Position numbers and translations under genes: made by a program
Source of the DNA: an uncultured Chloroflexia bacterium
GTDB lineage: Bacteria > Chloroflexota > Dehalococcoidia > DSTF01 > JACRBR01
Assembly: GCA_963736015.1 (NCBI GenBank)
Contig: CAVTNG010000009.1
Coordinates: 129,005-193,004 of the forward strand
Direction of reading: 5' to 3'
DNA: 64,000 bases
In this document: piece after piece, positions 27,676 through 54,340 of the stretch
Position numbering within the stretch: position 1 is the stretch's first letter
Layout of the letters: every line of letters begins with the position of its first letter
Notes under the pieces: model-generated
Told to the model about the DNA's origin: nothing
Databases searched by the model: none
The model's input: the letters and a program-made list of their open reading frames with translations, nothing else

Positions 27676-28434
27676 GTGACCCGGACTACCGAACCGCCCC
27701 CCACCGCCCCGCGCACGACGCGCGTCGACCGCATCCGCGCACGTTGGGATCGCTCCATCCGCCGCATCCGCACTCGCTGGGATCGATTCCTCGATCGCTT
27801 CGAGCACCTCATCGTGCGCTGGGAGGCCGAAGGCGCCACCGTCGACAACAAGCCCATCGTCACCGCCGGCAACCGCCGCATGGCCATCATCGGCATCGGC
27901 AGCGCCCTCGTCGGCACCATCGCCGCCCTCGTCGTCGCCTACACCATCGGCGGCGTCCAGCTCGTCAAGCGCCTCGGCTACGTCGGCGTGTTCCTGTCGT
28001 CCGTCATCGGCTCCGCGTCGATGTTCATCCCCGTCCCCGGCTCCCTCGCCGGCATCACCTTCGGCCTCTTCCTCACGCCGATCCCGCATGTCCCGCAGCC
28101 GCTCACCGTCGCCGTCGTCGTCGCTGCCGGCTCGGCGGTGGGCGAACTCACCGGCTACTCCACCGGCATCGGCGGCCGCGCCGTCATCGGCAACAGCCGC
28201 ATCGGCCGACTCCTCGTCGCCCTCATCCACCGCCACGGCTCGATCACCGTCTTCCTCATCGCCGCCGTTCCCAACCCCTTCATCGATGTCGGAGGCATCG
28301 CCGCCGGCGTCGCCGGCATGCCCATTCGCCGCTTCATGGCGATGATGTTCTGCGGGAAGACCATCAACTACCTGGCCATCGCCTACATCGTCAGCAGCGG
28401 CATCGAGTGGGCCCAGCGCTTCGTCAACGCCTGA
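27676..28434 (+). CDS. DedA/VTT (SNARE-associated, TVP38/TMEM64-like) family membrane protein
   Basis: 252-aa ORF (GTG start), Arg-rich N-terminus, multiple TM helices. Motifs FLSSVIGSASMFIPVPG and FLIAAVPNPFIDVGGIAAG. Confidence 0.65.
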   Translation: MTRTTEPPPTAPRTTRVDRIRARWDRSIRRIRTRWDRFLDRFEHLIVRWEAEGATVDNKPIVTAGNRRMAIIGIGSALVGTIAALVVAYTIGGVQLVKRLGYVGVFLSSVIGSASMFIPVPGSLAGITFGLFLTPIPHVPQPLTVAVVVAAGSAVGELTGYSTGIGGRAVIGNSRIGRLLVALIHRHGSITVFLIAAVPNPFIDVGGIAAGVAGMPIRRFMAMMFCGKTINYLAIAYIVSSGIEWAQRFVNA

Positions 28435-28560
28435 CGCACACCGCTAGACTCACCCGATGCGACGTAGGGGCCGGCTTGTGTGTCGGCCGTGCGCACCCGA
28501 GTCGAAGCTCACGCTTCGCGAACCATGGCGTAGCAATAACCGACTGAACCGGCCGATCCT

Positions 28561-28952
28561 CTACGACGCCTCGATCTTCCACGGCGGATTCAGCCGGTAG
28601 TCGCGCTCCTCGCTGTACAACCTCAGTTCGTGGCCGTCCGGATCGCGAAGGCGCGCCTCGCGCCAGAGGTAGAACATGTCCGTCGGCTCCTGGTAGAACA
28701 CGATCCCCCGCTCCTTAGCGCACGCACGTCGTCATCCACCGACTCGCACTGGAAGAACAGCTCCGCCGGTCCGCCTGCTGAACCCGATGCCTCCCCCTTG
28801 ACCTCGACCGACAGCGTCGCGTCCCCGTCCGGAAACGTGAAGCGCGCGTAGCGCGGCGGCGCATCGACGATCTGGGTCAGCCCGAGCGTCCGGTAGAACG
28901 TCTTCGAGCGTTCGAGATCGCTGACGATGAGCGTGACGTGATTGAAACGCAT
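28561..28952 (-). pseudogene. VOC/glyoxalase family protein, frame change near 28725
   Basis: MRFNHVTLIVSDLERSKTFYRTLGL...FFQCESVDDDV, then in another frame ...IVFYQEPTDMFYLWREARLRDPDGHELRLYSEERDYRL. Length 392 = 3n+2. Confidence 0.7.
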
Positions 28953-29056
28953 GACGTTGCCTCCTCACACCATCATGGCGCGCGGCGTCGCCGCAGGCAT
29001 CGGCCCGCCGGCGCAAACGGCACTACACCTTTGGACGGAGGATGCGCGGCCCGTCG

Positions 29057-29635
29057 CTAGCCCGCGCGACGATGCACTTCAAGCACCGTCGGCTGCGAAA
29101 CATCGGTCTCGACACGCTCGATCCTGTCGCCCGCTCGGACGTCTCCCGCCTCGACCACGCTCGCGTAGAAGCCCGTGCGTCCGGTCTCGCGCATCCGCTC
29201 CTTGAACTCCGGCATCGCCATCCGGATATCGAGCTTGTAGCAGGGCCCCCGCGGCTCCGTCACCCGGAGCAGCGCCTTCCCCGCGCGCAGCACGTCTTCA
29301 ACGCGGACCTCGTCCTCCAGCATCCCCTCCACCGTGAGGTTCTCCCCGAACTGACCGTGGGGAAGCGCCCGCCCCAGCTCCTGCGACCATGTTTCGTAGT
29401 GCGCGGCCGGATAGACGTAGACGGCTTTCCGCTCGCCCCCGTGCACCTGGCGACCGTTGAAGACGCGCGTGTCCGCCTGTCCGTCGCCCGCCAGCCCCCA
29501 CAACCGGACCCGCACCGGACCTTCGACGGCCGATTTGTAGATCCCCGTAACCACGGTGTGCTCGCCGACGACGATCGCGCGCGGCTGCCCGACGTTCACC
29601 GACAGGATCGACAAACTCGTCTCGACCTCGGTCAT
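29057..29635 (-). CDS. MOSC domain-containing protein
   Basis: Start at internal ATG 29635 (MTEVETSLSILSVNVGQP). Motifs: GDGQADTRVF...HGGERKAVYVYP...GENLTVEG...RVTEPRGPCYKL. Confidence 0.8.
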   Translation of the reverse strand: MTEVETSLSILSVNVGQPRAIVVGEHTVVTGIYKSAVEGPVRVRLWGLAGDGQADTRVFNGRQVHGGERKAVYVYPAAHYETWSQELGRALPHGQFGENLTVEGMLEDEVRVEDVLRAGKALLRVTEPRGPCYKLDIRMAMPEFKERMRETGRTGFYASVVEAGDVRAGDRIERVETDVSQPTVLEVHRRAG

Positions 29636-29755
29636 GGCAAAAGTGTAGCGGGCAGGTTGAACGGCGTATGACATTCCAGAGCTGTCGATCCCGGCCTGTC
29701 GTGCGGCGTCGTATCATCAGGCTACTGTCGGGCCACCGGATGAAGTGATCAAACG

Positions 29756-30328
29756 ATGAGTAACGACCGGGCCGAGGCAGCACCTGCGGCGGATGCGGAG
29801 CCGGCACCGACGCCGCGCGATCGCGTGCTGATGTCGATTCGGGCTGACGCGGCGCTGCTTCGCGATGAACTCGTCGCGCGCGTGCGGGCCGTGCAGGACG
29901 AGCTTCTCGGTATCTTCGCCGCAGGGCCTGGCGATGAGCGCGCCCGCTATCACGAAGGCGCCGACTGGTCGATGTCAGACCTGGCGCGCCATGTCATCGA
30001 CGTGGCGGAACGCATCGCTGCGCAGATCGGTGCGCTCGGTGCGGGACAGACGCCGCCGCCGTACAACGTGCCGGACGGGATGGAGATGCAGGTCGAGGAC
30101 GGCGGCGAGACGTTAGAGCAGTGGTGCTCGCGGTTGGGCGGCGCGCACGCATCGGTGCTGGCGGCAATAGACGGCCTGCCCCAGGAGCCCGACCTGGCTG
30201 TTACGTCCGGGCATGACTACTTCGGCCAATTCACCGCGCTCGAGTGGGCCGGGTTCCAGCGGTTTCACATCCTGATCACGCTGGATTACGCGCGTCAGCT
30301 ACTGGAGACTGCCGACACTCGACGCTAG
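29756..30328 (+). CDS. DinB-like / mycothiol-dependent-enzyme-type four-helix bundle protein
   Basis: 190-aa ORF with WSMSDLARHVIDV...EWAGFQRFHILITLDYARQL. Family assignment is tentative. Confidence 0.5.
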   Translation: MSNDRAEAAPAADAEPAPTPRDRVLMSIRADAALLRDELVARVRAVQDELLGIFAAGPGDERARYHEGADWSMSDLARHVIDVAERIAAQIGALGAGQTPPPYNVPDGMEMQVEDGGETLEQWCSRLGGAHASVLAAIDGLPQEPDLAVTSGHDYFGQFTALEWAGFQRFHILITLDYARQLLETADTRR

Positions 30329-30361
30329 GACGGGCGCGGCTCTCGGTACTAACTCGAAGGC

Positions 30362-30416
30362 CTGTGGTGCGGTGAACCCACCTCTCCGCGCCTTCTGCGT
30401 CTCTGCGGTGAACCCC
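30362..30416. repeat. dispersed repeat family B (TCCGCGCCYTCTGCGGTGAACC)
   Basis: ctgtggtgcggtgaaccca...ctccgcgccttctgcgtctctgcggtgaacccc. Second copy at 38389-38413. Confidence 0.55.
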
Positions 30417-30423
30417 AACCCCC

Positions 30424-31270
30424 CTACAGCCCCAGGATCTCCGCCAGCACCGGCCGCACATACTCCATGAACAGCCCCGGATTCTCGCTCATCGGAAAGT
30501 GCCCGAGCCCCGGCATGTCCTGATAACCGCGCCCGGAATCCGCTCCGCCAGCGCCTCGCCATCGCCGGCGTCGATGACCAGTCGTACTCGCCGTACATGA
30601 TGTCGACCGACACGCTCCGACGTATCGATCTGCTCCGCGGTTTCCGTCAGGTCGTGGTCGACGGAGTAGTAGTACAGGTCGCCCTTGAACACCGGCGGCG
30701 CGCCCTGGCTGTACACCCACGATGTCTCGTGCCGCAACGCCTCCGGGCTCGTCGGCGACATCAGCCCGTACATGACGCTTGCCTTGAAATCGTTCGAGAT
30801 CCGCGGGTGATGCCACATGTCCGGCGTACCCGCCGGGCGTGCGCGCCGACGCCTCGAGCCCGACGACCGCGCGGAAACGCTCCGGGTGATGCAGCGCCAG
30901 GTCGATCGCCAGGTGCCCGCCGATCGAACTGCCCATGAACGCGGGCCGCTCCAGCTCCAGCGCGTCCGCGAGCGTCAGCGGCACCTGCATCAGGAAGTCC
31001 TTCGTCAGCCGGTACTCCTGCGTCCACCAGTCCGTGCTCTCTGGCGGCAGCGACTTGCCGTGATACGGCAGGTCGTACGCGATCACGCGGAAACGTTCGC
31101 GCGAGCTCCGCGTCTCCGAGCACGTGCCGCCACTGGCGTCCATCCGCGCCGGCCGTGTGCTGCAGCAGCAACGGAATGCCCGCCCCCGCCTCTTCGAAGT
31201 ACACGCGATGCTCGACGCCGTCGATGGGCAGGTACACGTAGCGCCCGCTGATCGCGTCGAATCGCGCCAT
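30424..31270 (-). pseudogene. alpha/beta-fold hydrolase, about five frame changes
   Basis: MARFDAISGRYVYLPIDGVEHRVYFEEAGAGIPLLLQHTAG / RVIAYDLPYHGKS...AFMGSSIGGHLA (nucleophile elbow GSSIGG) / ...MPGLGHFPMSENPGLF. Pieces lie in three frames. Confidence 0.7.
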
Positions 31271-31642
31271 CACGCCTCTCCGTCCGCGCGCGCCAGCTCG
31301 ATCAGCCGCCGCAGCGCCGCGTAGTACGGCCCCACGATCCTCGACGCGTCCCTCCATCATGAAGCCGTGACGCGCGACAGCGCCGTACAGGTCCTGGTAG
31401 AACGGCCGCGGCCGCGGCTCCAGCATCGCGGCCCACCCGTCCTCGGGCCCGCTGATCCGTATCGCCCCGCTCGTCTTCCGCGGCACCTCGCTCGCTTCTT
31501 CGATGCGGCCGCCGCGCACGGTCATCCGCACCGTGTCTGCCCCGCCCGCGAACACGACGTCTGCATCCCACATGCGCGCCGCCAGCGCGAACTCGCCGTC
31601 GTCGTTCGCCCGCCGCATCGCCGCCAGCATCCGCTCCTTCAC
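31270..31642 (-). pseudogene. small conserved-looking protein (possible SCP2-like fold), frame change near 31335
   Basis: GTG overlaps the PrpD-family stop (GTGA). VKERMLAAMRRANDDGEF...RISGPEDGWAAMLEPRPRPFYQDLYGAV..., then GPYYAALRRLIELARADGEA*. Its stop overlaps the next ATG. Confidence 0.45.
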
Positions 31643-41991: not shown

Positions 41992-43393
41992 ATGCGCCGG
42001 TTCATCGTGTTTGTCGCCGTAGTCGCACTCGCACTGTCGTCGCTCCCGCGGCCGGTGGCCCGCGTGGCCGCCGACCCGCAGGGCAGCCCGCATTTGGAGC
42101 TCGACGCCGACCCTACGAACGGCACGCGCCCGTGCGATCCGATTGACGCGACCGCTACCGTCCCCGCAAGCACGCCGACCTACAACGTTGCCATCTGCAT
42201 CGATGAGCAGCTACCCGAAGCGATCTGGGGTTTCGAGGCCCGCGTCATCTGGTCCGGCGGCGTCGCGACCGCCATTGAGGTCCCGGACGTACCCGTCGCA
42301 CTCGACGACAACCCCGACTTCAACGATGCCCCGGGACCCGACGGCAACGGCGATGGCTGGGGCTGCACTGGCTATAACACCGCCTGGCCGAAGGGGAGAT
42401 GGGCCGGACACGGCCGAGACGGATGCGTACATCACGTGCGTCGTGAGTCCGCCCGGGCCTGGCGAGATGGCAGCATCGCCGGGACTCCTCGCCACGGTCA
42501 CGATGCAGGCGAGCGGTGCTGGCACCGAGACATTCGCGTTCTCAACGCTCGGCGATTCACAGATCGGATACCTAACGGCGAACTACGCCTGCAGCCAGGG
42601 CGTCTCGTGCCCGGGCGCCATGGTGATCCAGGCGTCGGAGGACGCGGACGGCGACGGAGTAGATGACGCCACTGACAACTGCCCGGGAATCGCGAACCCC
42701 GGGCAACAGAACACCGACCGCGAGATTGACAACGGCCCGGGGATTGCCGCGAAGGACATTACCGTCCCCAACGCCATTAGCGACACTGATGGCGACGCGT
42801 GCGAGACCGACGGCGATGCCGACAACGACGGGCTCGCGGACGCGAGCGAAGCGCCGCTCGGCAACTGCGGCGACTTCGACGGCACGGCCGCCTCGCACCC
42901 GAGTCCTGCCGGCGGCGACCTCACGAACGACGATAACGGAAACGGTGTGCCCGCACCGACGGATGTCGCCGACAATGGACCATCGTGGGACACGGACAAC
43001 GATGGAGCGCTCGACGGCGCCGAGTGCCAGCTCAACTTCAACCCGCGCTCGAGTTCGAGACCAAGCGCCGCCCAGTGTGGCGGCGCCGTCGACGCGGATG
43101 GCGACGGGCTACCGCTGTCTGCCGAGCGCTGTAAGTGGGGCACGATCGACACTGCCGTCACGGGCGTTGACTCCGACGGCGATGGCAAGAAGGACTGCAT
43201 CGAGGCCAACGACACGAACGGCGACGGTGTGCAGAACTTTCCCGGCGACACCATCAACTCGGCGAAGGCCGCGAACAGCATCATCGCCAAGACGATGGAC
43301 TTCGACCTCAACGGCGACGGCGTCGTCAACTTCCCGGGCGACACTATCCTGAGCGCCAAGCTGTCCAACCACGTCGGCGGAATCTGCGTCTAG
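41992..43393 (+). pseudogene. ~467-aa secreted protein: signal peptide, cohesin-like N-terminal domain, TSP3 repeats, dockerin-like tail; frame change near 42396
   Basis: MRRFIVFVAVVALALSSLP. Cohesin-like strands YNVAICIDEQLPEAIWGFEARVIWSGG and PGLLATVTMQASGAGTETFAFS. Tail DTNGDGVQNFPGD...DLNGDGVVNFPGD. Length 3n+1. Confidence 0.7.
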
Positions 43394-43427: not shown

Positions 43428-43454
43428 TTGACGGGGGGTGGCTGCCGTTATATC
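43428..43454 (+). promoter_or_regulatory. sigma70-like promoter candidate for the TetR gene
   Basis: TTGACG-15 nt-TATATC. The palindromic operator starts 13 nt downstream of the -10. Confidence 0.4.
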
Positions 43455-43466
43455 GTGGTTTTGCGC

Positions 43467-43486
43467 TAGTGAGTGTTCACTCACTA
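43467..43486. promoter_or_regulatory. perfect 9-2-9 inverted repeat, candidate TetR operator
   Basis: TAGTGAGTG-TT-CACTCACTA, 13 nt upstream of ATG 43499. Confidence 0.6.
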
Positions 43487-43498
43487 AGCAAGAGGCAC

Positions 43499-44182
43499 AT
43501 GCAGCAGGCTCGGGCACGCCGCCTTCCCGCCGACAAGCGCCGCCGTCAGATCATCGAGAGCGCGCGCGGCGTCTTCGCGTCTCAGAGCTACGGCCGCGTC
43601 GGCACCGCCGACCTTGCGAAAGCCGCCGGCATCTCCGAACCTGCTCTGTACCGCCACTTCTCCGGCAAGAAGGACCTCTTCGTTGCCACCATCCGCGCGA
43701 CGGGCCCGCGCCTCCTCCGCATCTGGGAGGAGATATCGGTCGACTACGAGGACCCGATCGAGACGCTGTGGGCGATCGGCGTCTACTACTACGACCACCT
43801 GGAATCCCACGCCGCGAACATGAAGCTCCAGTTCCGCGCCCTTTCCGAGGCGGACGACCCCGAGATCCAGGTCGCCCTGCGGGACAACTTCGAGGCGTTC
43901 GTGGACTTCGTCGCCGACACGCTGGAGGAGGGAAAAGCCCGTGGCGTCGTGAAGGACGACGTCGACACGCGCTTGATCGCCTGGCAGTTCCTCGGCATCG
44001 GCATGACGCTCGACCTGATGCACATGCTTGGGCTCGAGGACGAGATGGACCGGACGCGAGCGGACCTCTGGGGGCGTGTATACCTCGAGACCGTGCGCCG
44101 GAAGGACCATCAAGGCAACCTGCGCTACGTGACGGCCGAAGCGACGCCAATGCGCGCACCGGAGGGCGTCGGCGGTCTATGA
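43499..44182 (+). CDS. TetR/AcrR family transcriptional regulator
   Basis: Start at internal ATG 43499 (MQQARARRLPADKRRRQIIESARGVFASQSYGRVGTADLAKAAGISEPALYRHFSGKKDLF, HTH). Confidence 0.85.
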   Translation: MQQARARRLPADKRRRQIIESARGVFASQSYGRVGTADLAKAAGISEPALYRHFSGKKDLFVATIRATGPRLLRIWEEISVDYEDPIETLWAIGVYYYDHLESHAANMKLQFRALSEADDPEIQVALRDNFEAFVDFVADTLEEGKARGVVKDDVDTRLIAWQFLGIGMTLDLMHMLGLEDEMDRTRADLWGRVYLETVRRKDHQGNLRYVTAEATPMRAPEGVGGL

Positions 44183-44256
44183 AGGAAGTTGACGTTAACG
44201 TGAGAGTCCTACAAGATCATCCGGCTTTCTCACTCCCATCCGGGCCGAAGGTAAGC

Positions 44257-45479
44257 ATGGACTTCAACGACACGCCTGCCGAAGCTGCGTTTCGCACGGA
44301 AGTGCGAGCATTCATCGAAAACGAGTGCCCTCCGAGCATCAAGCGCCGCGGTTTCCGCGCTGCGTTCGGCGGTGGCGGCTGGGACGACATCCACATGCCG
44401 CGCGAGGAGTACTTCGCACGCAATGGCGAGTGGGTGAGAGAAGCTCGCGGACCGGGGCTGGATCGCGCCGGCGTGGCCGAAGGAGTACGGCGGCGCCGGC
44501 ATGACGGTCATGGAGCAGTTCATCTTCAGCCAGGAGATGTCCGCTGTCGGGTGCACCGCGCGGCGGCAACTTCGGCATCGGCACCGGCTGGGCCGGGCCG
44601 ACGATCATCCTCCACGGCACCGAAGAACAGAAGAAACGTACCTGCCGGGCATCGTCAAGGGTGACGAGGTCTGGTGCCAGGGCTTCAGCGAGCCGGGCGC
44701 GGGGAGCGACCTTGCGGCGGTGCAGACGCGGGCAATCAAGGATGGTGACGACTACGTGGTCAACGGCCAGAAGATCTGGACCAGCGGCGCACACGTGGCG
44801 AAGTACATGATCCTGCTCGCCCGGAGCGATCGCCGATGCGCCGAAGCACAAGGGCATCAGCTACTTCATCGTCGACATGAAGTCGCCCGGCATCACCGTG
44901 CGACCGCTCGTGAACATGGCCGGCAACCACGACTTCAACGAGGTGTTCTTCGAGGACGTCCGCGTGCCGGCAAGAGAACATGATCGGCGAGGAGAACCGC
45001 GGCTGGTACGTCGGCACGACCACGCTCGACTTCGAGCGCTCCGGTATCGCCACGAGCATCTCGCACTCCCTGATGGTGCAGGACCTCGCGACGTTCGTGC
45101 GCGAGAACCGCGACGAGGGCTGGATCTCGAAGAGCCGCTCTGTGAAGCATGAGATCGCGGACCGCATGATCGAGGCCGGCGTCGAGGAGATGCTGTCGTA
45201 CCAGGTGATTTCGATGCAGAACCGCGGCCTTGTTCCCAATAAGGAATCCTCGATCGCGAAGCTGTACTCATCTGAGCTGGACATGCGCATCGCCGGCACG
45301 GCCATGCGTGTGCTCGGGCCTCTACGGACAGCTTGGCGGCGGCAGTCCTCACGCAGCGGCGAACGGGCGCGTGCGAGAGCATGTATCTCTACGCAACGAC
45401 GAGCACCGTCGGCGGCGGGACGAGCGAAATCCAGCGGAACATCATCGCCTCTCGCGGGCTGGGGATGCCGCGGGCGTAG
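44257..45479 (+). pseudogene. acyl-CoA dehydrogenase paralog 1, about seven frame changes
   Basis: MDFNDTPAEAAFRTEVRAFIE / RGWIAPAWPKEYGGAG / NFGIGTGWAGPTIILHGTEEQKK / WCQGFSEPGAGSDL / [12 protein letters not shown] / [17 protein letters not shown] / GGGTSEIQRNIIASRGLGMPRA*. Length 1223 = 3n+2. Confidence 0.8.
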
Positions 45480-45528
45480 ACACGTGAACAAGCCCCCGGC
45501 GGGGCACGGAAACGGCAGGAGGAATCAG

Positions 45529-46707
45529 ATGGACTTCCGCGACAACACCGAAGAGGCAGCGTTCCGCGAAGAGGTGCGCGACTTCATCAAGACCGAGGTG
45601 AAGTCGAATGACCAGATGGAGGACCTCGAGCGCGGGATGTACCGCGGCGCGTTCGAGCGCCTGCGCGACCTGCGCGGCAAGCTCTCTACGCGCGGCTGGA
45701 TCGCCCCGGCGTGGCCGAAGGAGTACGGCGGCGCCGGCCTCGACGTGATGCGGCAGTTCATCATGAACGAGGAGTTCGCCGAGAACCGTGTTCCACCGGT
45801 CGGCGGCATGGGCGTCTCGATGGTGGGCCCCACGCTGATCACCCACGGCTAAGAGGAACAGAAGAAGGAGCACCTCGGCCGCATCCTGGCGGGCGAGGTG
45901 CAATGGTGCCAGGGGTTCAGCGAGCCCGGGTCGGGCTCCGACCTCGCGTCATTGCAGACCCGTGCCGTGAAGGACGGAGACGACTACATCATCAACGGCC
46001 AGAAGATCTGGACCTCGGGCGCGCAGTACGCGCACTGGATGTTCATGATGGCGCGCACCGACCCGGACGCTCCCAAGCACAAGGGCATCAGCTACTTCCT
46101 GGTCGACATGAAGTCGCCGGGCGTCGAAGTACGCCCGCTCACGAACCTGGCGAACCAGAACATGTTTAACGAGGTGTTCTTCGAGGACGTGCGCGTTCCC
46201 GCGAAGAACATCGTCGGCGAGCTCAACCGCGGCTGGTACGTCGGTACGACCACGCTCGACTTCGAGCGCTCGAGCATCGGCAGCGCGGTCGGCGTCAAGC
46301 TCCAGCTCGACGGCCTGGTGAAGTACGCCAGGCAGAACGAGAAGGCGGGTGTCGCCCGCACGGGCTACCTCCCCTCGATCAAGGCTGAGCTGGCCGACCG
46401 CTACGTCGAGGCCAATGTCGCACGCATGATGTCGTACCGGGTTGTGACCATGCAGGCGAAGGGCCTGATCCCCAACCACGAAGCGTCGATGACCAAGCTC
46501 TTCGCGTCGGAGCTGAACCAGCGCATCTCACGCACCGGCATGAAGGTGCTGGGCCTGTACGGCCAGCTCTACGGCGACGAGTCGCCGATGAAGGGGCGGT
46601 ACGAGAGCAGCTACATGACATCGCTGGCATCGACGATCGCCGGCGGTACGAGCGAGATCCAGCGCAACATCATCGCGACGCGAGGCCTCGGGCTTCCGCG
46701 CGACTAA
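45529..46707 (+). pseudogene. acyl-CoA dehydrogenase paralog 2, single in-frame TAA at 45850-45852
   Basis: AGGAGG RBS. The same frame runs on both sides of the stop: ...GPTLITHG*EEQKKEHL...WCQGFSEPGSGSDL...GGTSEIQRNIIATRGLGLPRD. Paralogs have Thr or Ser at the stop position. Confidence 0.8.
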
Positions 46708-46741
46708 GCGCAGACGTAACACCCAGCACGAGGAGGAAGAC

Positions 46742-47923
46742 GTGGATTTTACCGACAGCCCCGAAGAGGCCTCATTCCGCAAGGAAGTGGCCAGGTTCAT
46801 CGAGACCGAGGCGCCACGCCCGAAGCCGGGACAGTCGGCTGAGGAGGCGCTGGTTTCCGGCTGGCAGGCGAACCAGGAGTGGTTCAAGAAGCTGGCGCAG
46901 AAGGGGTGGATCGCGCCGGCGTGGCCGAAGGAGTACGGCGGCGCCAGCATGACGACGGTGCAGCAGTTCATCTTCAACGAGGAGATGGCGCTGCACAAAG
47001 CGCCACGGCCGATGCACATGATCATCGGGCTCGGCATGGCGGGCCCTACGCTCATCGTGCACGGCACGGAGGATCAGAAGCAGAAGTACCTGCCGGGCAT
47101 GCTGAAAGGCGAGGACATCTGGTGCCAGGGCTACAGCGAGCCCGGCGCCGGCTCGGACCTGGCATCGCTCCAGACGCGCGCCGTGCGCGACGGTGATGAC
47201 TACGTGGTCAACGGTCAGAAGATTTGGACGACGCTGGCGCACATGGCGAAGTACATGATCCTCCTCACGCGCACGGATCCCGACGCGCCCAAGCACCGCG
47301 GCATCACGTACTTCATTCTCGATATGAAGTCGCCGGGCGTAGAAGTGCGGCCGCTGTACAACCTGGGGAACTCGCACGAGTTCAACGAGGTGTTCTTCGA
47401 CAACGTCCGCATCCCGAAGGACAACGTCATCGGTGAGGAGAACCGCGGCTGGTACTCCGCCGTGACGACGCTGGACTTCGAGCGCTCGAGCATCGGCTCC
47501 GCGACGGGCATGAAGCAGCACGTCGAGGAGCTCATCGAGTACGCGCGCAAGCACGCGGACGACCCCACGAGCACGCTGCGCACGAATCCGATGCTTCGGT
47601 ACGAGCTCGCCGACCGCATGGTCGAGACGGAAGTGGCGCGGATGCTCTCGTATCGCGTCGCCAGCATGCAGGCACGCGGCCTCATCCCGAACTACGAGGC
47701 GTCCTCGCTGAAGCTGTTTTCGACGGAGCTGAACCAGCGCATCGCGCGCTCGGCCGTCCACATCCTGGGCCTGTACGGTCAGCTCAAGGGCGATGAGGCG
47801 CCGAACCGCGGCCGATGGCTCGCGACGTACCTGCGGTCGCAGGCGTTCACGATCGAGGGCGGAACGTCAGAGATCCAGCGGAACATCATCGCGCAGCGCG
47901 GGTTGGGGTTGCCGCGCGACTAG
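46742..47923 (+). CDS. acyl-CoA dehydrogenase paralog 3 (intact)
   Basis: GTG after AGGAGGAAG. 393-aa uninterrupted ORF with the same motif set as paralogs 1, 2, 4 and 5. Confidence 0.9.
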   Translation: MDFTDSPEEASFRKEVARFIETEAPRPKPGQSAEEALVSGWQANQEWFKKLAQKGWIAPAWPKEYGGASMTTVQQFIFNEEMALHKAPRPMHMIIGLGMAGPTLIVHGTEDQKQKYLPGMLKGEDIWCQGYSEPGAGSDLASLQTRAVRDGDDYVVNGQKIWTTLAHMAKYMILLTRTDPDAPKHRGITYFILDMKSPGVEVRPLYNLGNSHEFNEVFFDNVRIPKDNVIGEENRGWYSAVTTLDFERSSIGSATGMKQHVEELIEYARKHADDPTSTLRTNPMLRYELADRMVETEVARMLSYRVASMQARGLIPNYEASSLKLFSTELNQRIARSAVHILGLYGQLKGDEAPNRGRWLATYLRSQAFTIEGGTSEIQRNIIAQRGLGLPRD

Positions 47924-48034
47924 CGACGAGCCTGGCCGACCGCCGTGAGTCGTGGCGTCTGTGACGGACGGGTCTGAAGACCTTCTACTACAAACATCGG
48001 CGGCGGAATCGAACGGGCCATGCGCAGGGGCAAC

Positions 48035-49218
48035 ATGAGGTTCACGTTCACGGCACGAGCAGGAGACGTTTCGACGGGAAGTTGAGGACTTTCTGCGCGG
48101 GGCGCTGCCTGCTGACTGGGAGGGCGCGGACAACGCGATCGACGACGAGTCCTACCAGTTCGGACGCGAGTTCCTGAAGAAGCTGGCGCCGAAGCACTGG
48201 ATCGCGCCCGCGTGGCCGAAGCAATACGGCGGGCTGGAGCTATCGCTCTGGGATCAGGTGGTGTTCAACGAGGCGATGGGCTACGCGCGCGCGCCGATCG
48301 TCAACACGGCCGCGGTCGGGTACCTGGGACCGACGATCATGCTCTACGGTTCCGACGAGCAGAAGCAACAGCATCTGCCCGGCATCACCTCTGGCGATGT
48401 AGTGTGGTGCCAGGGATACAGCGAGCCGAACTCCGGCTCGGATCTCGGCCTCGCTCCAGACGCGAGCCATGCAGGACGGCGACGACTTCATCCTGAACGG
48501 CCAGAAGATCTGGACGAGCCAGGCGCACTACGCCGACTGGATGTTCGTGCTGGCGCGCACAGACCCGGATGCGCCAAAGCATCGCGGCATCAGCTACTTC
48601 CTGATGGATATGAAGACGCCCGGCGTGTCGGTGCGGCCGCTCATCAACATGGCGAACGGCGAGGGATTCAACGAGGTGTTCTTCGAGAACGTCCGCATCC
48701 CGCGATCCGGCCTGCTCGGTGAACTGAACCGCGGCTGGTACATCGCCACGACGACGCTGGACTTCGAGCGATCGTCGATTGGCGGAACGGCGCAGGCGCG
48801 CCGCGCGCTCGAGGATCTGGTGCGGTTCGCGAAGTCGGAGCGCGAAGCGGGGACACGCAAGGCGCTCTGGGGCCGTGCGAACGTGCGCCATGCGATCGCC
48901 GATCTCTGGATCGATCTCGAGATGGCGCGGATGCTGTCGTATCGGGTGGTGAGCATGCAGGAACGAGGCCTGGTGCCGAACTACGAGGCATCGATCATCA
49001 AGGTGTTCTCTTCAGAATACGTGCAGCGGCAGGCGCGCGTCGGGCTCAGCATCATGGGGCTATACGGCGGCCTCTGGGGCGATGGACCCTGGGCGAAGCT
49101 GCGCGGGCGGTTCTCGAAATCGTATGTCGCGACCGTTGGGACGGCCATCGCCGGCGGCACGTCCGAGATCCAGCGAAACATCATCGCCCAGCGCGGGCTC
49201 GGGCTGCCGAGACAGTAG
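48035..49218 (+). pseudogene. acyl-CoA dehydrogenase paralog 4, two frame changes (~48053, ~48455)
   Basis: MRFTFT / HEQETFRREVEDFL...WIAPAWPKQYGG...YGSDEQKQQHL...WCQGYSEPNSGSDLG / LQTRAMQDGDDFILNGQKIW...GGTSEIQRNIIAQRGLGLPRQ*. Confidence 0.8.
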
Positions 49219-49220
49219 CG

Positions 49221-50393
49221 ATGGATTTTCGAGACTCACCGGCTGACGCTGCGTTCCGTACCGAGGTGCGTGAATTCATCGAGCATGAGCTGCCGGAGGG
49301 CTTCCGCGGCGCGGACGACGCCATTCTCGGCGTGGGTATCGGCGAGGATCAGCGCGAACGCGGCTGGCTTCGCACGCTCGCGAAGCGAGGCTGGGTCGCG
49401 CCGGCGTGGCCGAAGGAGTACGGCGGCGCGGGCCTCGGCGTCATGCAGCAGTTCGTGTTCAACGAGGAGATGGCGCGCGCAAACGCGCCCCGCCCCAATT
49501 TCCTGGCGATCGGTCTCGCCGGGCCGACGATCATCGTGCACGGAACGGACGAGCAGAAGCGCGAGCACCTTTCGAGCATCCTCTCCGGGGAAGCGTTCTG
49601 GTGCCAGGGGTTCAGCGAACCCGGCTCCGGTTCGGATCTGGCATCGCTGCAGACGCGAGCAGTCGCCGACGGAGACGACTTCATCATCAACGGTCAGAAG
49701 ATCTGGACCTCGGGCGCGCACCGCGCCGACCGCATGATGCTGCTCGCTCGCACCGATGCTGAGGCGCCGAAGCACAAGGGCATCAGTTACTTCCTGCTCG
49801 ATATGAAGTCGCCCGGCATCACGATTCGGCCGCTGACGAACATGGCGGACACGCCGAGCTTCAACGAGGTCTTCTTCGACAACGTGCGCGTGCCGAAGCG
49901 CGACATGCTCGGCGAGCTGAACCGCGGCTGGTACGTGGCGACCACGACGCTCGACTTCGAGCGCTCCGGGATCATCAACGGCGTCGGACTGCAGCGCCTC
50001 GTACGCGACATCATCGAATTCGCAAGACAACACGGCCGGCGCGACGGCGGCGAGCGTCAGCTGCGGCTGGAGCTGGCGGACCGCGAGATCGAGGCGCAGA
50101 TCGCGATCGTACTGTCGTATCGGGTCGTCACGATGCAGGCGAAGGGGCTCGTTCCGAACCAGGAGGCGTCAATCACCAAGCTGTACTCATCGGAGCTCGC
50201 GCAGCGGATTGCGCGCACAGGCGTGAAGACAGCGGGGCTATACGGGCAGCTGCGCGAGAGCTCGCCGTGCGCCGCCGATGGCGGGCGGCTTGACTCTGTG
50301 TACCGGATCAGCATTGGCTCGACGATCGCGGGCGGTACGAGCGAGATCCAGCGCAGCGTCATCGCGCAGCGCGGGTTGGGGTTGCCGCGATGA
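49221..50393 (+). CDS. acyl-CoA dehydrogenase paralog 5 (intact)
   Basis: 390-aa uninterrupted ORF starting 2 nt after the paralog 4 stop. Confidence 0.9.
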   Translation: MDFRDSPADAAFRTEVREFIEHELPEGFRGADDAILGVGIGEDQRERGWLRTLAKRGWVAPAWPKEYGGAGLGVMQQFVFNEEMARANAPRPNFLAIGLAGPTIIVHGTDEQKREHLSSILSGEAFWCQGFSEPGSGSDLASLQTRAVADGDDFIINGQKIWTSGAHRADRMMLLARTDAEAPKHKGISYFLLDMKSPGITIRPLTNMADTPSFNEVFFDNVRVPKRDMLGELNRGWYVATTTLDFERSGIINGVGLQRLVRDIIEFARQHGRRDGGERQLRLELADREIEAQIAIVLSYRVVTMQAKGLVPNQEASITKLYSSELAQRIARTGVKTAGLYGQLRESSPCAADGGRLDSVYRISIGSTIAGGTSEIQRSVIAQRGLGLPR

Positions 50394-50782
50394 AGCGACT
50401 GCTCATGGCCGTCGGCATCGCAGCGGCGATCTACGGCGCGTCGGCGGGGATCGGTCTCCTCCTGTACGCGACGGGCAACATCGCGACCGGAGCGACGCAC
50501 AACGACTGCGCCGACATCAAGGCGCAGATCGCGGCGGAGCAGGGAGTCGCCGAGGAAGACGTCGTGCAGAGCGAGGTGGCGGCGCGTACGCAGGCGTGCC
50601 TCGATGAACACGAGCTGACACCGGAGTACGCACTGCGGACGGAATACCTGACGTGGCCACTGTGGGGCGCCCTGGTGGTTGCGGGCGTCTTCCTGCTGTG
50701 GCCGCTGTGGACACGCGTGCTGGAGAACCAGGACAAGGCCGACCCCGCGAAGGAAGCGCCCCGGTTGGAGATGGGTCAGTGA
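50390..50782 (+). CDS. hypothetical two-TM membrane protein
   Basis: ATGA overlap with paralog 5. 130 aa with N- and C-terminal hydrophobic helices. Confidence 0.5.
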   Translation: MKRLLMAVGIAAAIYGASAGIGLLLYATGNIATGATHNDCADIKAQIAAEQGVAEEDVVQSEVAARTQACLDEHELTPEYALRTEYLTWPLWGALVVAGVFLLWPLWTRVLENQDKADPAKEAPRLEMGQ

Positions 50783-50927
50783 AAGGAGCGGCGTAGCGAA
50801 AGACGAAAACGCACGCTCGAGGTCAGCGGCGAGCGGTACGCAGGGCGGACCCTTCGCCCCTGACCTTGCAGCAACGGAAGACGGCGGGTAGATCAATGGA
50901 CGCAACGGCCGAAAGGAGCCTCAACGC

Positions 50928-52052
50928 ATGGACCTGGGACTGTCTGAAGAACAAGAACTGCTGAAGAACGCGGCGCGCGACTTCCTCGAGAAGGAGTGCC
51001 CGGAAACGCTGGTACGGGAGATGGAGGAGGACGAGAAGGGTTACTCGCCGGACCTCTGGAAGAAAATGTCCGAGCAGGGCTGGCAGGGTCTGCTGATCCC
51101 CGACCAGTACGGCGGTGCGGGCTTCGGCTACCTGGACCTGATCATCCTCATCGAGGAGTTCGGGCGCGCGCTGGTGCCGGGACCGTTCATCTCGACCGTC
51201 GTCGGCGGGACGCTGCCGCTGCTCGAGGGCGGAAGCGAGGACCAGAAGAAGCAGTACCTTCCGCAAATCGCGAGCGGCAATGCGATCTGGGCCCTCGCGT
51301 ACACCGAGCCGTCGGCTCGGTTCGACACCGAGGGCGTCTCGCTCGAGGTGAAGGACGACGGTGGCGATGTCGTGCTGAACGGCACGAAGCTGTTCGTGCG
51401 AGACGCCAACGTCGCCGACTTCATGACGGTCGTCGGCCGGCGACCTGGCACGAAGGGCGAGGACGGCATCGAACTGGTGATCGTCGACGCGAAAGCATCA
51501 GGCATCTCGCAGACCCAGCTCAAGACCATCGCCGCGGACAAGCAGGCCGAAGTGAAGTTCGAGAACGTCCGCGTGCCGAAGGGCAACGTGATCGCGGGCG
51601 GCTCGGCCCTGCTGAAGAAGGTGCAGCGCAAGGCGACCGTCATCGAGTGTGCGTACCTCGTTGGACTCGCGCAGATGGACTTCGAGATCAGCGTCCAGTA
51701 CGCGAAGGACCGCATTCAGTTCGGCAGGCCGATCGGGTCGTTCCAGGCGATCCAGCACAAGGCTGCCGACATGGTGACGGACGTCGACGGCGCCCGCTTC
51801 ATCATGTACCGCGCGGCATGGTCCGTGGACCAGGACGAGGCCGACGCCGACATGAACGTGCACATGGCGAAGGCGTGGTGCAGCGAGGCGACACGCCGCG
51901 TCGTTGCGCACGGTCAGCAGATCCACGGCGGCATCGGCTTCACGAAGGACTACAAGGTCCAGCTGTACTTCCGCCGCCAGAAGGCGTCGGAGCTGGCGTG
52001 GGGCGACGCCGACTACCACCGTGAGCTCGTCGCGGAGGAGCTGGCGGTCTAG
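50928..52052 (+). CDS. acyl-CoA dehydrogenase family protein (divergent, 374 aa)
   Basis: AAAGGAG RBS. MDLGLSEEQELLKNAARDFLEKECP...FGRPIGSFQAIQHKAADM...IHGGIGFTKDY. C-terminus ELAWGDADYHRE differs from the tandem paralogs. Confidence 0.85.
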   Translation: MDLGLSEEQELLKNAARDFLEKECPETLVREMEEDEKGYSPDLWKKMSEQGWQGLLIPDQYGGAGFGYLDLIILIEEFGRALVPGPFISTVVGGTLPLLEGGSEDQKKQYLPQIASGNAIWALAYTEPSARFDTEGVSLEVKDDGGDVVLNGTKLFVRDANVADFMTVVGRRPGTKGEDGIELVIVDAKASGISQTQLKTIAADKQAEVKFENVRVPKGNVIAGGSALLKKVQRKATVIECAYLVGLAQMDFEISVQYAKDRIQFGRPIGSFQAIQHKAADMVTDVDGARFIMYRAAWSVDQDEADADMNVHMAKAWCSEATRRVVAHGQQIHGGIGFTKDYKVQLYFRRQKASELAWGDADYHRELVAEELAV

Positions 52053-52076
52053 GCCGCAGCAGCGTGAATCGACAGA

Positions 52077-52103
52077 GCGGGCCGTCTCGATGAGACGGCC
52101 CGC
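52077..52103 (+). terminator. rho-independent terminator after the ACAD array (possibly bidirectional)
   Basis: 12-bp stem GCGGGCCGTCTC-GAT-GAGACGGCCCGC followed by TTCTTCAT. Lies between convergent genes. Confidence 0.6.
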
Positions 52104-52135
52104 TTCTTCATCACGTCACTCGAGAAGCGGCCCGC

Positions 52136-52540
52136 CTAACGGACGGGCTTGACCACAAGCGTGCCCGCGATCTTGTCGGACCAGCCCTGTTTCTTCGGGT
52201 CCCAGATGATCCACAGGAACCCGAGGCCGAGCGCCAATCCCGAGACGATATAGCCGACGTAGCGCAGGAAGCAGGCGCCGAGTCCCAGCGGGCTACCGTC
52301 CTCTCGAACCACCTGCAGGCCGAGCGCCATCTTGCCGGGCGTAGCGCCAACTGCGTACCAGAACCCGATGGTGTACATGGCGCCGGCAAGGATCGCGAGG
52401 GCCGCCCCCGCGTCGCCAAAGGCGAGCCGGAGAACGATGTCGATGGTGATGAGGATCACGAAGTCGATGAGATAGGCGACCAGGCGAATCCCGAATCCCT
52501 GCACCTCCGCGTAGACCTGCTGCTCGTGCGATCCGATCAT
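52136..52540 (-). CDS. RDD family membrane protein
   Basis: 134 aa with GFGIRLVAYLIDFVILI...PGKMALGLQVV...WDPKKQGWSDKIAGTLVV. Confidence 0.75.
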   Translation of the reverse strand: MIGSHEQQVYAEVQGFGIRLVAYLIDFVILITIDIVLRLAFGDAGAALAILAGAMYTIGFWYAVGATPGKMALGLQVVREDGSPLGLGACFLRYVGYIVSGLALGLGFLWIIWDPKKQGWSDKIAGTLVVKPVR

Positions 52541-52610
52541 GACTTCCCTCCACCTGATCTATCGGCAGCCGCCCTGAGTGCCGGAAGAGGCGGCGTTCGT
52601 CGCACGCCCG

Positions 52611-53537
52611 TCAGCCGAGCACTGTCCGCAGCCAGAAGTCCGCGAACTCAGGCATCTTCACTGAGCGTACGACCTCGACCTCGTGCCCGGCCGCTGGATC
52701 GATGAAGGTACGGACGTGCCCCTGGTGCATGGCAACGGTCACCGGCAGCTGCTCGATGGTGACGAAGGCTCGCCCTTCTTCCGTCATACATGCAACGGCG
52801 AGCGGATCGTGCAGGAGCGCCACGTACTCGGGCGGGATCACGCCGCGGCCGCCGCGATGCATACGGGGCATCCAGACCTCGACCTGGCGGACCAACTCGC
52901 GGCAGAGGGCATCGCCCTTGCGCAGTGCATCGAGGTTCGAGGCGGTGAGCCAGGTGGTGAACGTGACTTCGCAGCCGATGTAGATCCCGCCGATGCCGGC
53001 GTTCAGCGCGAGCAGCGATGCCTGCTGGTCGACGTTGAGATTGTGATCCACCGACGGCGGCAGCGGGTTCTCGAGGAAGCGGACCGGCCCGAACACGCCG
53101 CCCATGACCGTGAGGCTGCCAATGTCATCGGCGAACGAGCGATCGCGCTGTAGCGCGGCGGCGATGTTGGACTGCATGCCGATCGTCGCGACGGCATAGT
53201 GGTGCTCCGCGCACTCATCGAGCAGCAGCGAAACGCCGTCGCGGTCTGAGATCTCGATCGCGTCTGCGCCCCCGCCGAGCATGTCATCCTCGTGTCCGCC
53301 TTCGGCGCTGCGGTGTGGCTGGCTCTGCTCGCCCCGCTCTCCCGCCGCAACTTCGATGTCTCCGCGACCGGCAATGCGCAGCACCTTCGCGGCGATCTTC
53401 GCGCGTCGCACCGTGTCGCCGGAGACGGTCGTGACGGCGCGCAGGTCCAACTCCGGGTGGCGCAGGCAGAACGCCAGTGCGAGCGTGTCATCGACGTCGC
53501 TGCCGATGTCAGTGTCGAGGATCATCGAGATGGACAT
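52611..53537 (-). CDS. nucleoside hydrolase (inosine/uridine-preferring family)
   Basis: MSISMILDTDIGSDVDDTLALAFCL (DxDxxxDD motif). 308 aa. Confidence 0.85.
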   Translation of the reverse strand: MSISMILDTDIGSDVDDTLALAFCLRHPELDLRAVTTVSGDTVRRAKIAAKVLRIAGRGDIEVAAGERGEQSQPHRSAEGGHEDDMLGGGADAIEISDRDGVSLLLDECAEHHYAVATIGMQSNIAAALQRDRSFADDIGSLTVMGGVFGPVRFLENPLPPSVDHNLNVDQQASLLALNAGIGGIYIGCEVTFTTWLTASNLDALRKGDALCRELVRQVEVWMPRMHRGGRGVIPPEYVALLHDPLAVACMTEEGRAFVTIEQLPVTVAMHQGHVRTFIDPAAGHEVEVVRSVKMPEFADFWLRTVLG

Positions 53538-53572
53538 GAAGCGCAGCGTACACGAGTCGTGGCAAACGGGGG

Positions 53573-54340
53573 CTAGTCGGGCTGGTCTTCCGTACGGCGG
53601 CGGCGCATCTGGTACGCCAGCAACATCTGCTCGCGCTCCGCATGTGAGGACTCCGCGGGGACCATGAGACGCGCCATCGCGTTGGTCGCGGACTTCGTCA
53701 TGGCAACGGCGAGCGGGTCCTTGGCGAGGATGCGCTCCGCCAGCTTGCGCGCTTCGAGCAGCACCTGGTCATCCGGATAGACCCGGTTCACGAAGCCCCA
53801 CTCAAGCGCCTCGCGCGCGCTGAAGCGGTCGCACATGAGCACCAGCTCCTTCGTGCGGGCGGGGCCAAGCTCGCGCATCAGGCGAGGCAGCGCGCCCCAC
53901 GTGAGCGGCAGCTCCAGGTCGACTTCGGGAATGGAAAACCAGGCAGATTCCGCCGCGAGCCGCATGTCGAGGCAACTCAGGAACACCACCGCACCACCGA
54001 TGGCGAGGCCGTTGACGGCGGCGATCGTCACCTGGTCGAGGCCTTCGAGCGCGGCGGACGTGCGGTCGCCCATGCTGACGCGAAGGCGGCGGTCGAGATC
54101 GCTCTGCGGGTGGCCGCCCTGGCGGCTCGAGAGCTCGGCGCCGGAGGAGAAGGCGCGACCCTCGCCGGTGACGATGACGACGCGCGTATCGAAGTCGTCC
54201 TGCAGGTCACGGCACGCCTGCTGCAGCTCTTCGTGCATCGTCACGTTGATGGCGTTGAGCTTGTCGGGGCGACTCAGCGTGATCGTCGTGAGGCCCGGCA
54301 GTTCGTCGTCGCGATCGATGCGTATGGTTTCCATTGTCAA
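53573..54340 (-). CDS. enoyl-CoA hydratase/isomerase (crotonase) family protein
   Basis: ITLSRPDKLNAIN...VVIVTGEGRAFSSGAEL...AAVNGLAIGGAVVFLSCLDMRLA. Confidence 0.85.
   Translation of the reverse strand: MTMETIRIDRDDELPGLTTITLSRPDKLNAINVTMHEELQQACRDLQDDFDTRVVIVTGEGRAFSSGAELSSRQGGHPQSDLDRRLRVSMGDRTSAALEGLDQVTIAAVNGLAIGGAVVFLSCLDMRLAAESAWFSIPEVDLELPLTWGALPRLMRELGPARTKELVLMCDRFSAREALEWGFVNRVYPDDQVLLEARKLAERILAKDPLAVAMTKSATNAMARLMVPAESSHAEREQMLLAYQMRRRRTEDQPD

Follow-up and report, generated by a model that had tools for sequence, protein, structure and literature searches.

Organization of the locus

The analyzed window comprises 64,000 nucleotides (nt) from an uncultured Chloroflexia bacterium of the Dehalococcoidia (assembly GCA_963736015.1, contig CAVTNG010000009.1, positions 129,005 to 193,004 of the forward strand). 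The genome holding the window has a size of 2.70 Mb in 13 contigs and a G+C content of 67%. At the locus studied here, a TetR-family regulator gene is followed by five paralogous acyl-CoA dehydrogenase (ACAD) genes (p1 to p5), a gene for a small membrane protein and a sixth ACAD gene (p6). With a probability of about 0.8, the locus is a TetR-led operon of five anciently diverged alpha-type and one beta-type ACAD genes, in which the apparent pseudogenes are artefactual. The following features were assigned, with positions referring to the window.

43428..43456, plus strand: promoter-like site TTGACG-17-TATCGT, upstream of tetR
43467..43486, unstranded: candidate operator palindrome TAGTGAGTG-TT-CACTCACTA (= TAGTGAGTGTTCACTCACTA), from the palindrome search
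43499..44182, plus strand: TetR-family regulator, gene 1 of the operon (Pfam TetR_N, 7.5e-15)
44257..45479, plus strand: ACAD paralog 1 (p1), alpha-type, 7 frame changes (orthologue alignment)
45529..46707, plus strand: ACAD paralog 2 (p2), alpha-type, one in-frame TAA at 45850-45852
46742..47923, plus strand: ACAD paralog 3 (p3), alpha-type, intact (three Pfam ACAD domains)
48035..49218, plus strand: ACAD paralog 4 (p4), alpha-type, 2 frame changes (orthologue alignment)
49221..50393, plus strand: ACAD paralog 5 (p5), alpha-type, intact (Pfam; NCBIfam pimC_large, 263 bits)
50390..50782, plus strand: membrane protein of 130 amino acids (aa) with two helices (hydropathy profile)
50928..52052, plus strand: sixth ACAD (p6), 374 aa, beta-type, candidate non-catalytic partner (Pfam, motifs)
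52076..52106, unstranded: perfect GC-rich hairpin of 14 bp, terminator candidate, between the convergent p6 operon and an RDD gene

A previous annotation made from the letters alone (the sequence-only reading) had placed and identified the TetR gene, the five ACADs, the small membrane protein and the sixth ACAD correctly. Its lesion counts were reproduced by frameshift-aware alignment, which gave seven frame changes in p1, two in p4 and one TAA in p2, and p3, p5 and p6 were found to be open. The Pfam domains PF02771, PF02770 and PF00441 all scored above the gathering cut-off in p3, p5 and p6. When the frames were followed, p1, p2 and p4 could be aligned over their full length to p3, p5 and p6, and thus belong to the ACAD superfamily as well. 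The protein identity among the five paralogs is 55-62%. At this distance, collapsed repeats of near-identical paralogs, which had been named as a possible source of error, are not an issue.

The 130-aa protein consists of two hydrophobic helices and a loop of about 60 aa with two cysteines, and its start overlaps p5 by ATGA. No Pfam or NCBIfam match was obtained for it. It is 42-57% identical within the family and is missing from several of the arrays found at the order level.

Conservation of the array in related genomes

The order tetR-p1-p2-p3-p4-p5-small-p6 recurs across eight or more genera of the family. The five alpha-type genes are uninterrupted in all of these copies, and p6 reads as broken in two of them (L021 and L031). 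The p6 interval of L021, which lies in the genome G016, has a stop in its translation; the tree and the profile were made without it. In related families, arrays of two to five alpha paralogs are followed by p6. Among 80 loci from public genomes, the architectures T-A5-s-B, T-A5-B, T-A4-B, T-A3-B and T-A2-B were found (T, tetR; A, alpha; s, small membrane protein; B, beta).

Orthologues of p1 to p5 in other genera show 75-92% identity each. In the maximum-likelihood tree, each positional paralog forms a clade of its own with an SH-aLRT support of 94-100 (99% for the p1 clade), and the order-level genes nest by position. Since the orthologues group by position across genera, the duplications pre-date the family, and the operon is an ancient, conserved unit. 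A recent amplification followed by loss, as assumed in the sequence-only reading, is incompatible with this topology, because each paralog is closest to its orthologues in other genera and not to its neighbours. This is the outcome that the sequence-only reading had itself named as evidence against local amplification.

Within the operon, p6 is conserved more strongly than any other gene, with 85-93% identity in the family and the shortest terminal branch (0.026). Compared with one relative, p6 has the operon's lowest ratio of nonsynonymous to synonymous substitution rates (dN/dS; 0.07), and compared with the other its ratio of 0.12 falls in the middle of the range.

Frame changes in p1 and p4

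The frame changes in p1 are located near positions 44438, 44541, 44635, 44832, 44971, 45315 and 45373, those in p4 near 48052 and 48446. In a DNA alignment with six uninterrupted orthologues, all nine were found to be single-base insertions or deletions (indels) private to this assembly. Six 1-nt insertions and one deletion were identified in p1 and two 1-nt insertions in p4, and all eight insertions are of G or C.

For the background rate, a codon-usage Viterbi detector trained on this genome was used. It finds seven of the nine sites, as the final two of p1 are merged at 45315 and the near-start site of p4 is missed. Genome-wide, 2831 frameshifts were called with this detector (1.20 per coding kb), 68% of which are one-base insertions. 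The control rate, determined with the same detector on coding sequence of twelve relatives (155 kb in total), is 0.12 per kb. The calls are over-dispersed: no call falls in 45% of all 1.2-kb intervals, and 3.5% contain at least six. A set of six genes in which three are clean, one has two calls and another has seven is therefore ordinary for this assembly. Outside the array, 30 further frameshift calls were obtained in the window.

The gene rpoB, which is read in one frame of about 1250 aa in the relatives, is distributed over several reading frames here. DNA alignment revealed 29 private indel events in approximately 3.75 kb. They include 21 single-base insertions, 19 of them G or C, and their density is higher than that in p1. 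In the rpoB genes of three relatives, 0, 0 and 6 private indel columns were counted. The CheckM completeness of just 51% for the 13-contig genome is consistent with broken marker genes. The region of rpoB and rpoC (genome contig 5, 27900-36450, with rpoB at 27900-31600; rpoB locus L030) has about 26 frameshift calls in 8.5 kb. Homopolymer slippage was considered as the sole cause of the indels and rejected, because most of the inserted bases do not lie in runs of more than 2-3 bases.

With the frames followed, the dN/dS to the nearest relative was determined to be 0.08 for p1, 0.13 for p2 and 0.13 for p4, compared to 0.155 for p3 and about 0.16 for p5 as intact genes. The terminal branches of p1, p2 and p4 are not longer than those of the intact genes in the tree.

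The alternative explanation is a lineage-specific decay, with p1, p2 and p4 as real pseudogenes in this organism. It is true that the lesions are present in the deposited sequence, and that the TAA of p2 is a substitution-type lesion outside the indel error mode. However, private single-base insertions of G or C occur across the assembly and are denser even in the essential gene rpoB, the genome-wide frameshift rate is ten times that of the control, and the lesion pattern of the array matches the background distribution of the genome. In addition, dN/dS and branch lengths are normal, and the alpha-type genes are uninterrupted in every relative examined. The different states of decay described in the sequence-only reading are therefore lesions of the same class as those found assembly-wide, and after frame correction the genes show ordinary purifying selection. 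The features of a pseudogene array are lacking, and decay in this organism is considered highly improbable. The nine frame changes of p1 and p4 are most likely sequencing or assembly artefacts, probably of an indel-rich assembly built from long reads. The organism itself most likely has six intact ACAD genes, possibly except for p2 with its TAA. Because even rpoB is broken, pseudogene calls based on frameshifts are unreliable throughout the assembly.

Similar breaks were observed at further positions and in other genomes. A one-base insertion call near 42397 joins the open reading frames 41992-42666 and 42143-43393 into one gene of 467 codons (window positions 41992-43393). Six other ACAD loci were identified in the genome, on contig 2 (171084-171643), contig 3 (10763-11561), contig 6 (160958-162111 and 166233-167265) and contig 10 (91782-92776 and 326439-327479). 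Two of these are of the alpha type. Most of the six read as frameshifted, as would be expected from the error rate of the whole assembly. In a complete metagenome-assembled genome from long reads, the p6 orthologue is split into two frames (L031, OY969567.1, 3058138-3059260), and the beta genes of a 5-contig genome of the same order (G019) are split as well. Indel-like errors seem to be common in these public long-read metagenome-assembled genomes of Chloroflexota.

The in-frame stop codon of p2

In place of the TAA at 45850-45852, the orthologues have AAC, ACC or ACG. The stop of p2 accordingly needs two changes, or an adjacent insertion and deletion. After the indels were projected out, no in-frame stop was found in rpoB. 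In a genome-wide scan, stops flanked by coding signal in the same frame occur at 20 per Mb in this genome vs. 18 per Mb in the controls. Given these similar frequencies and the absence of such stops from rpoB, nonsense errors are not a visible feature of the assembly. The TAA is not of the dominant error class and could be a real lesion, which weighs against a fully artefactual origin of the interruptions. Besides a real mutation of very recent date, a polymorphism or a compound error could account for it.

Two predicted types of ACAD subunits

In heteromeric ACADs, the alpha subunit contributes the isoalloxazine site, the catalytic glutamate and the substrate site, and the beta subunit contacts the ADP-ribose part of flavin adenine dinucleotide (FAD); the glutamate is found in one subunit only, and two FAD are bound per tetramer (PMC10925408, PMC8399759).

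The best PDB matches of p3 were ChsE4 (4X28_A, 9e-66) and Tcur3483 (6.7e-65), followed by canonical ACADs (1e-47). The best NCBIfam model for both p3 and p5 was pimC_large with 288 and 263 bits, respectively (equivalog cut-off 624). In the HMMER alignment, the glutamate of the LDFER motif of p3 is aligned to E247 of ChsE4. This glutamate was identified in all 57 alpha sequences, as were the flavin-ring motifs S-EP, GSD and W-T. None of the 57 has R..QFG...FQ or QIHGGxG, and the canonical QIHGGxG site is occupied by (I/V)LGLYG.

The pattern in p6 is complementary. Its matches among the NCBIfam models and PDB entries were pimD_small (216 bits, joint best), IpdE2, Tcur3481 (2.5e-40) and ChsE5 (2.9e-34). 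In a HMMER alignment to butyryl-CoA dehydrogenase, a W is found at the site of Glu376 of MCAD and an A at the site of Glu254 of IVD. In the 12 p6 orthologues, F replaces the serine of GSD and I/V-R replaces W-T. RIQFGRPIGSFQ and QIHGGIG are kept in 12 out of 12. The retained R..QFG and QIHGGxG motifs are presumably the contacts to the ADP-ribose of FAD, an assignment of our own that is based on the near-consensus alignment of p6 to canonical ACADs. Residues for the FAD contacts are not named in PMC10925408 and PMC8399759. From the replaced residues, p6 is inferred to be catalytically incompetent. When the alpha and beta sequences were aligned together with MAFFT, the "MDFE" of p6 fell into the column of the alpha "LDFER". 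This was judged to be a chance column, and the HMMER and hhalign alignments were used instead.

Within the alpha type, 19 alignment columns are fixed inside each paralog clade and differ among the clades. They are densest at residues 92-100, which align with the helix-unwinding region at P91 of ChsE4, where the substrate cavity is enlarged (PMC10925408). The location of these clade-specific residues suggests different substrates for the five alphas.

Candidate promoter, operator and terminator

The site TTGACG-17-TATCGT is the sole sigma-70-like match between positions 43300 and 52300. A TTGAC box at a similar distance is also present in the relatives, upstream of the operator core. Directly after the promoter-like site lies the palindrome TAGTGAGTGTTCACTCACTA, which is single-copy in the window (0 matches in 100 shuffles) and in the genome. 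Of 12 relatives, 11 keep the operator core TAGTGAG..CTCACTA just upstream of tetR. Two operator lengths were observed in the loci L015-L026, a 7-2-7 form TAGTGAG-TG-CTCACTA in most relatives and a 9-2-9 form TAGTGAGTG-YT-CACTCACTA here and in two relatives. A search of the array promoters for the operator had been suggested; no further copy was found within the array or in the rest of the genome.

The TetR protein shows its best NCBIfam similarities to FasR and to FadR of Bacillus, both under the cut-off. Given this weak similarity, an acyl-CoA ligand is plausible. The tetR orthologues are 59-88% identical and head the array in every case, and the gap between tetR and p1 is just 18-44 nt in some relatives. 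With a TetR_N helix-turn-helix domain and a conserved palindrome at its own promoter, the locus has the appearance of an autoregulated operon of the TetR family. Control by TetR, as suggested previously, is plausible in view of the conserved operator palindrome, and the binding itself is a prediction from sequence.

Downstream of p6, a hairpin was identified at 52076-52106, within a region with a minimum free energy of -52.3 kcal/mol and a fold z-score of -5.4. The strong terminator of the sequence-only reading was retained as far as the perfect 14-bp hairpin is concerned, but the U-tract is weak (CTTCTTCAT), and for this reason a simple terminator scan made no call at this position. In the simplest view, one autoregulated transcript would extend from tetR to p6 and end at the hairpin. 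On the minus strand, genes for an RDD-family membrane protein, a nucleoside hydrolase and an enoyl-CoA hydratase (window positions 52136-54340) converge on the operon. An RDD homologue downstream of the operon was seen in one relative only (L022).

Proposed pairing of the subunits

Two ACAD types are encoded co-directionally behind one promoter, and their order is kept in the relatives. The catalytic glutamate was found in one subunit type only, with the reservation that p6 has a conserved glutamate four residues further on, and the FAD-contact motifs are lost in a complementary manner between the alphas and p6, as judged at the motif level. These properties are those of a heteromeric ACAD. 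The ratio of one alpha per beta was not found, as the operon contains five alpha genes and one beta gene. In a genome of the same order, three adjacent 1:1 alpha-beta pairs were identified, which supports a partnership of the two types.

The gene numbers were compared in further genomes. The relative G016 (96% complete) carries two solitary alpha-type genes besides the five of its array, seven in all. Its p6 orthologue is the sole beta-type gene, and its other ACADs keep the flavin-ring motifs. In eight more distant Chloroflexota genomes (reached via L072, L076, L080, L091, L095, L102, L106 and L109), exactly one p6 orthologue each was detected with 64-75% identity. The number of alpha-type paralogs in these genomes ranges between 9 and 19, and they are mostly dispersed on the chromosome. 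In all three of these genomes that were checked, the p6 orthologue adjoins at least one alpha. One beta serving many alphas would fit this stoichiometry; alphas working alone would also be compatible with it.

Some observations argue against a role of p6 as a non-catalytic partner. Overall, it resembles canonical homotetrameric ACADs, at 182 bits, more closely than the known beta subunits, which reach 142 bits. Its conserved glutamate lies four residues after the IVD-type site, in a helix where the hhalign profile-profile alignment is weak. Many alpha-type genes are solitary and far from beta genes, and they might work without a beta. The six genes could then encode independent homomeric ACADs, an ordinary battery for beta-oxidation without any alpha-beta partnership. 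The 7-19 alphas per genome vs. a single p6 orthologue would suit such a battery, and so would the catalytic glutamate retained by all five alphas. On the other hand, the R..QFG and QIHGGxG motifs kept by p6 are absent from all 57 alphas, and the 12 p6 orthologues are without the flavin-ring contacts and both canonical positions of the catalytic glutamate. Furthermore, the closest characterized relatives of the alphas (ChsE4, Tcur3483 and PimC) are all obligate heteromer subunits, and p6 closes the array in every case. Independent homomeric enzymes are hence regarded as unlikely, though they deserve more weight than a pairing of the alpha paralogs with each other.

In such a pairing, adjacent paralogs (p1-p2, p3-p4) would join like the products of adjacent fadE pairs in mycobacteria. 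The paralogs are adjacent and tightly spaced, but all five are of one subunit type, with the glutamate and the flavin-ring motifs and without the ADP-ribose-contact motifs, so that no complementary partner is available among p1 to p5. Arrays of 2, 3, 4 or 5 alphas exist, odd numbers included. We consider this arrangement very doubtful. The reference to heteromeric ACADs in the sequence-only reading was relevant, with the correction that the likely partner is the beta-type p6 and not an adjacent paralog.

A partnership between the alphas and p6 is accordingly preferred. FadE31 pairs with two partners. In the present case, p6 may be a shared hub partner for many alphas, so that alpha2beta2 ACADs would be built combinatorially from a single scaffold chain together with many diversifying catalytic chains. 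This extension is tentative, and we give it somewhat less than an even chance. In the proposed course of events, TetR would bind the palindrome overlapping its own promoter and repress the whole transcript. An acyl-CoA-like ligand would free TetR, and the operon would be expressed. Each alpha would then join the single beta in an alpha2beta2 dehydrogenase carrying two FAD. Because conserved pocket residues are not the same in the five alphas, the resulting enzymes would accept different acyl-CoAs as substrates.

If one beta does serve many alphas, the operon would be a simple example of combinatorial enzyme assembly and a modular way for Dehalococcoidia of soil and subsurface to use a broad range of acyl-CoA substrates. 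A hub role would account for the constraint on p6, which is the strongest in the operon, and it would help to explain the diverse acyl-CoA handling by abundant soil bacteria.

Comparison with known ACAD systems

The literature searched on heteromeric ACADs contained no account of a gene stoichiometry of 5:1 locally or up to approximately 19:1 per genome. The structurally or biochemically described examples met there are steroid and bile-acid enzymes of Actinobacteria and Proteobacteria, in addition to PimCD.

Canonical homotetrameric ACADs (MCAD, IVD, butyryl-CoA dehydrogenase) share the three-domain fold with the proteins described here, and the glutamate of the alphas is located at the IVD/LCAD-type helix-G position found in canonical enzymes. 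In the latter, all FAD contacts and the catalytic base reside in one chain, whereas here they appear to be split between alpha-type and beta-type genes.

For PimC/PimD (TIGR03204/TIGR03203), pimC_large was the best model for p3 and p5 and pimD_small the joint best for p6. The scores of 288, 263 and 216 bits are far under the equivalog cut-offs of 624, 624 and 653 bits, and p3, p5 and p6 are therefore not orthologues of PimCD. Moreover, no genes of the pimFAB type adjoin the operon.

The pair Tcur3481-Tcur3483 of Thermomonospora curvata (PDB 6WY8/6WY9) provides the second-best structural relative of p3 (Tcur3483), and Tcur3481 matches p6 over its full length. In contrast to the five-alpha array, the two subunits are paired 1:1, and the enzyme acts on the side chains of bile acids (PMC8399759).

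The best structural match of p3 belongs to the alpha2beta2 enzyme ChsE4-ChsE5 (FadE26-FadE27) of Mycobacterium tuberculosis (PDB 4X28). ChsE4 is matched by p3 over its full length, and p3 has a proline at the position of P91, as in ChsE4. The complementary split of motifs is like that described for its alpha and beta subunits (PMC10925408), and in both cases the genes share one operon with a TetR-family regulator. The identity is just 35-40% approximately, and there are five alpha genes per beta gene instead of a 1:1 ratio. The host is a member of the soil Dehalococcoidia, with no evident steroid pathway beside the operon. Judged from motifs and gene content, the most fitting description of the operon would be a variant of the alpha2beta2 ACAD system with five alphas and one beta, which would extend this architecture to uncultured Chloroflexota.

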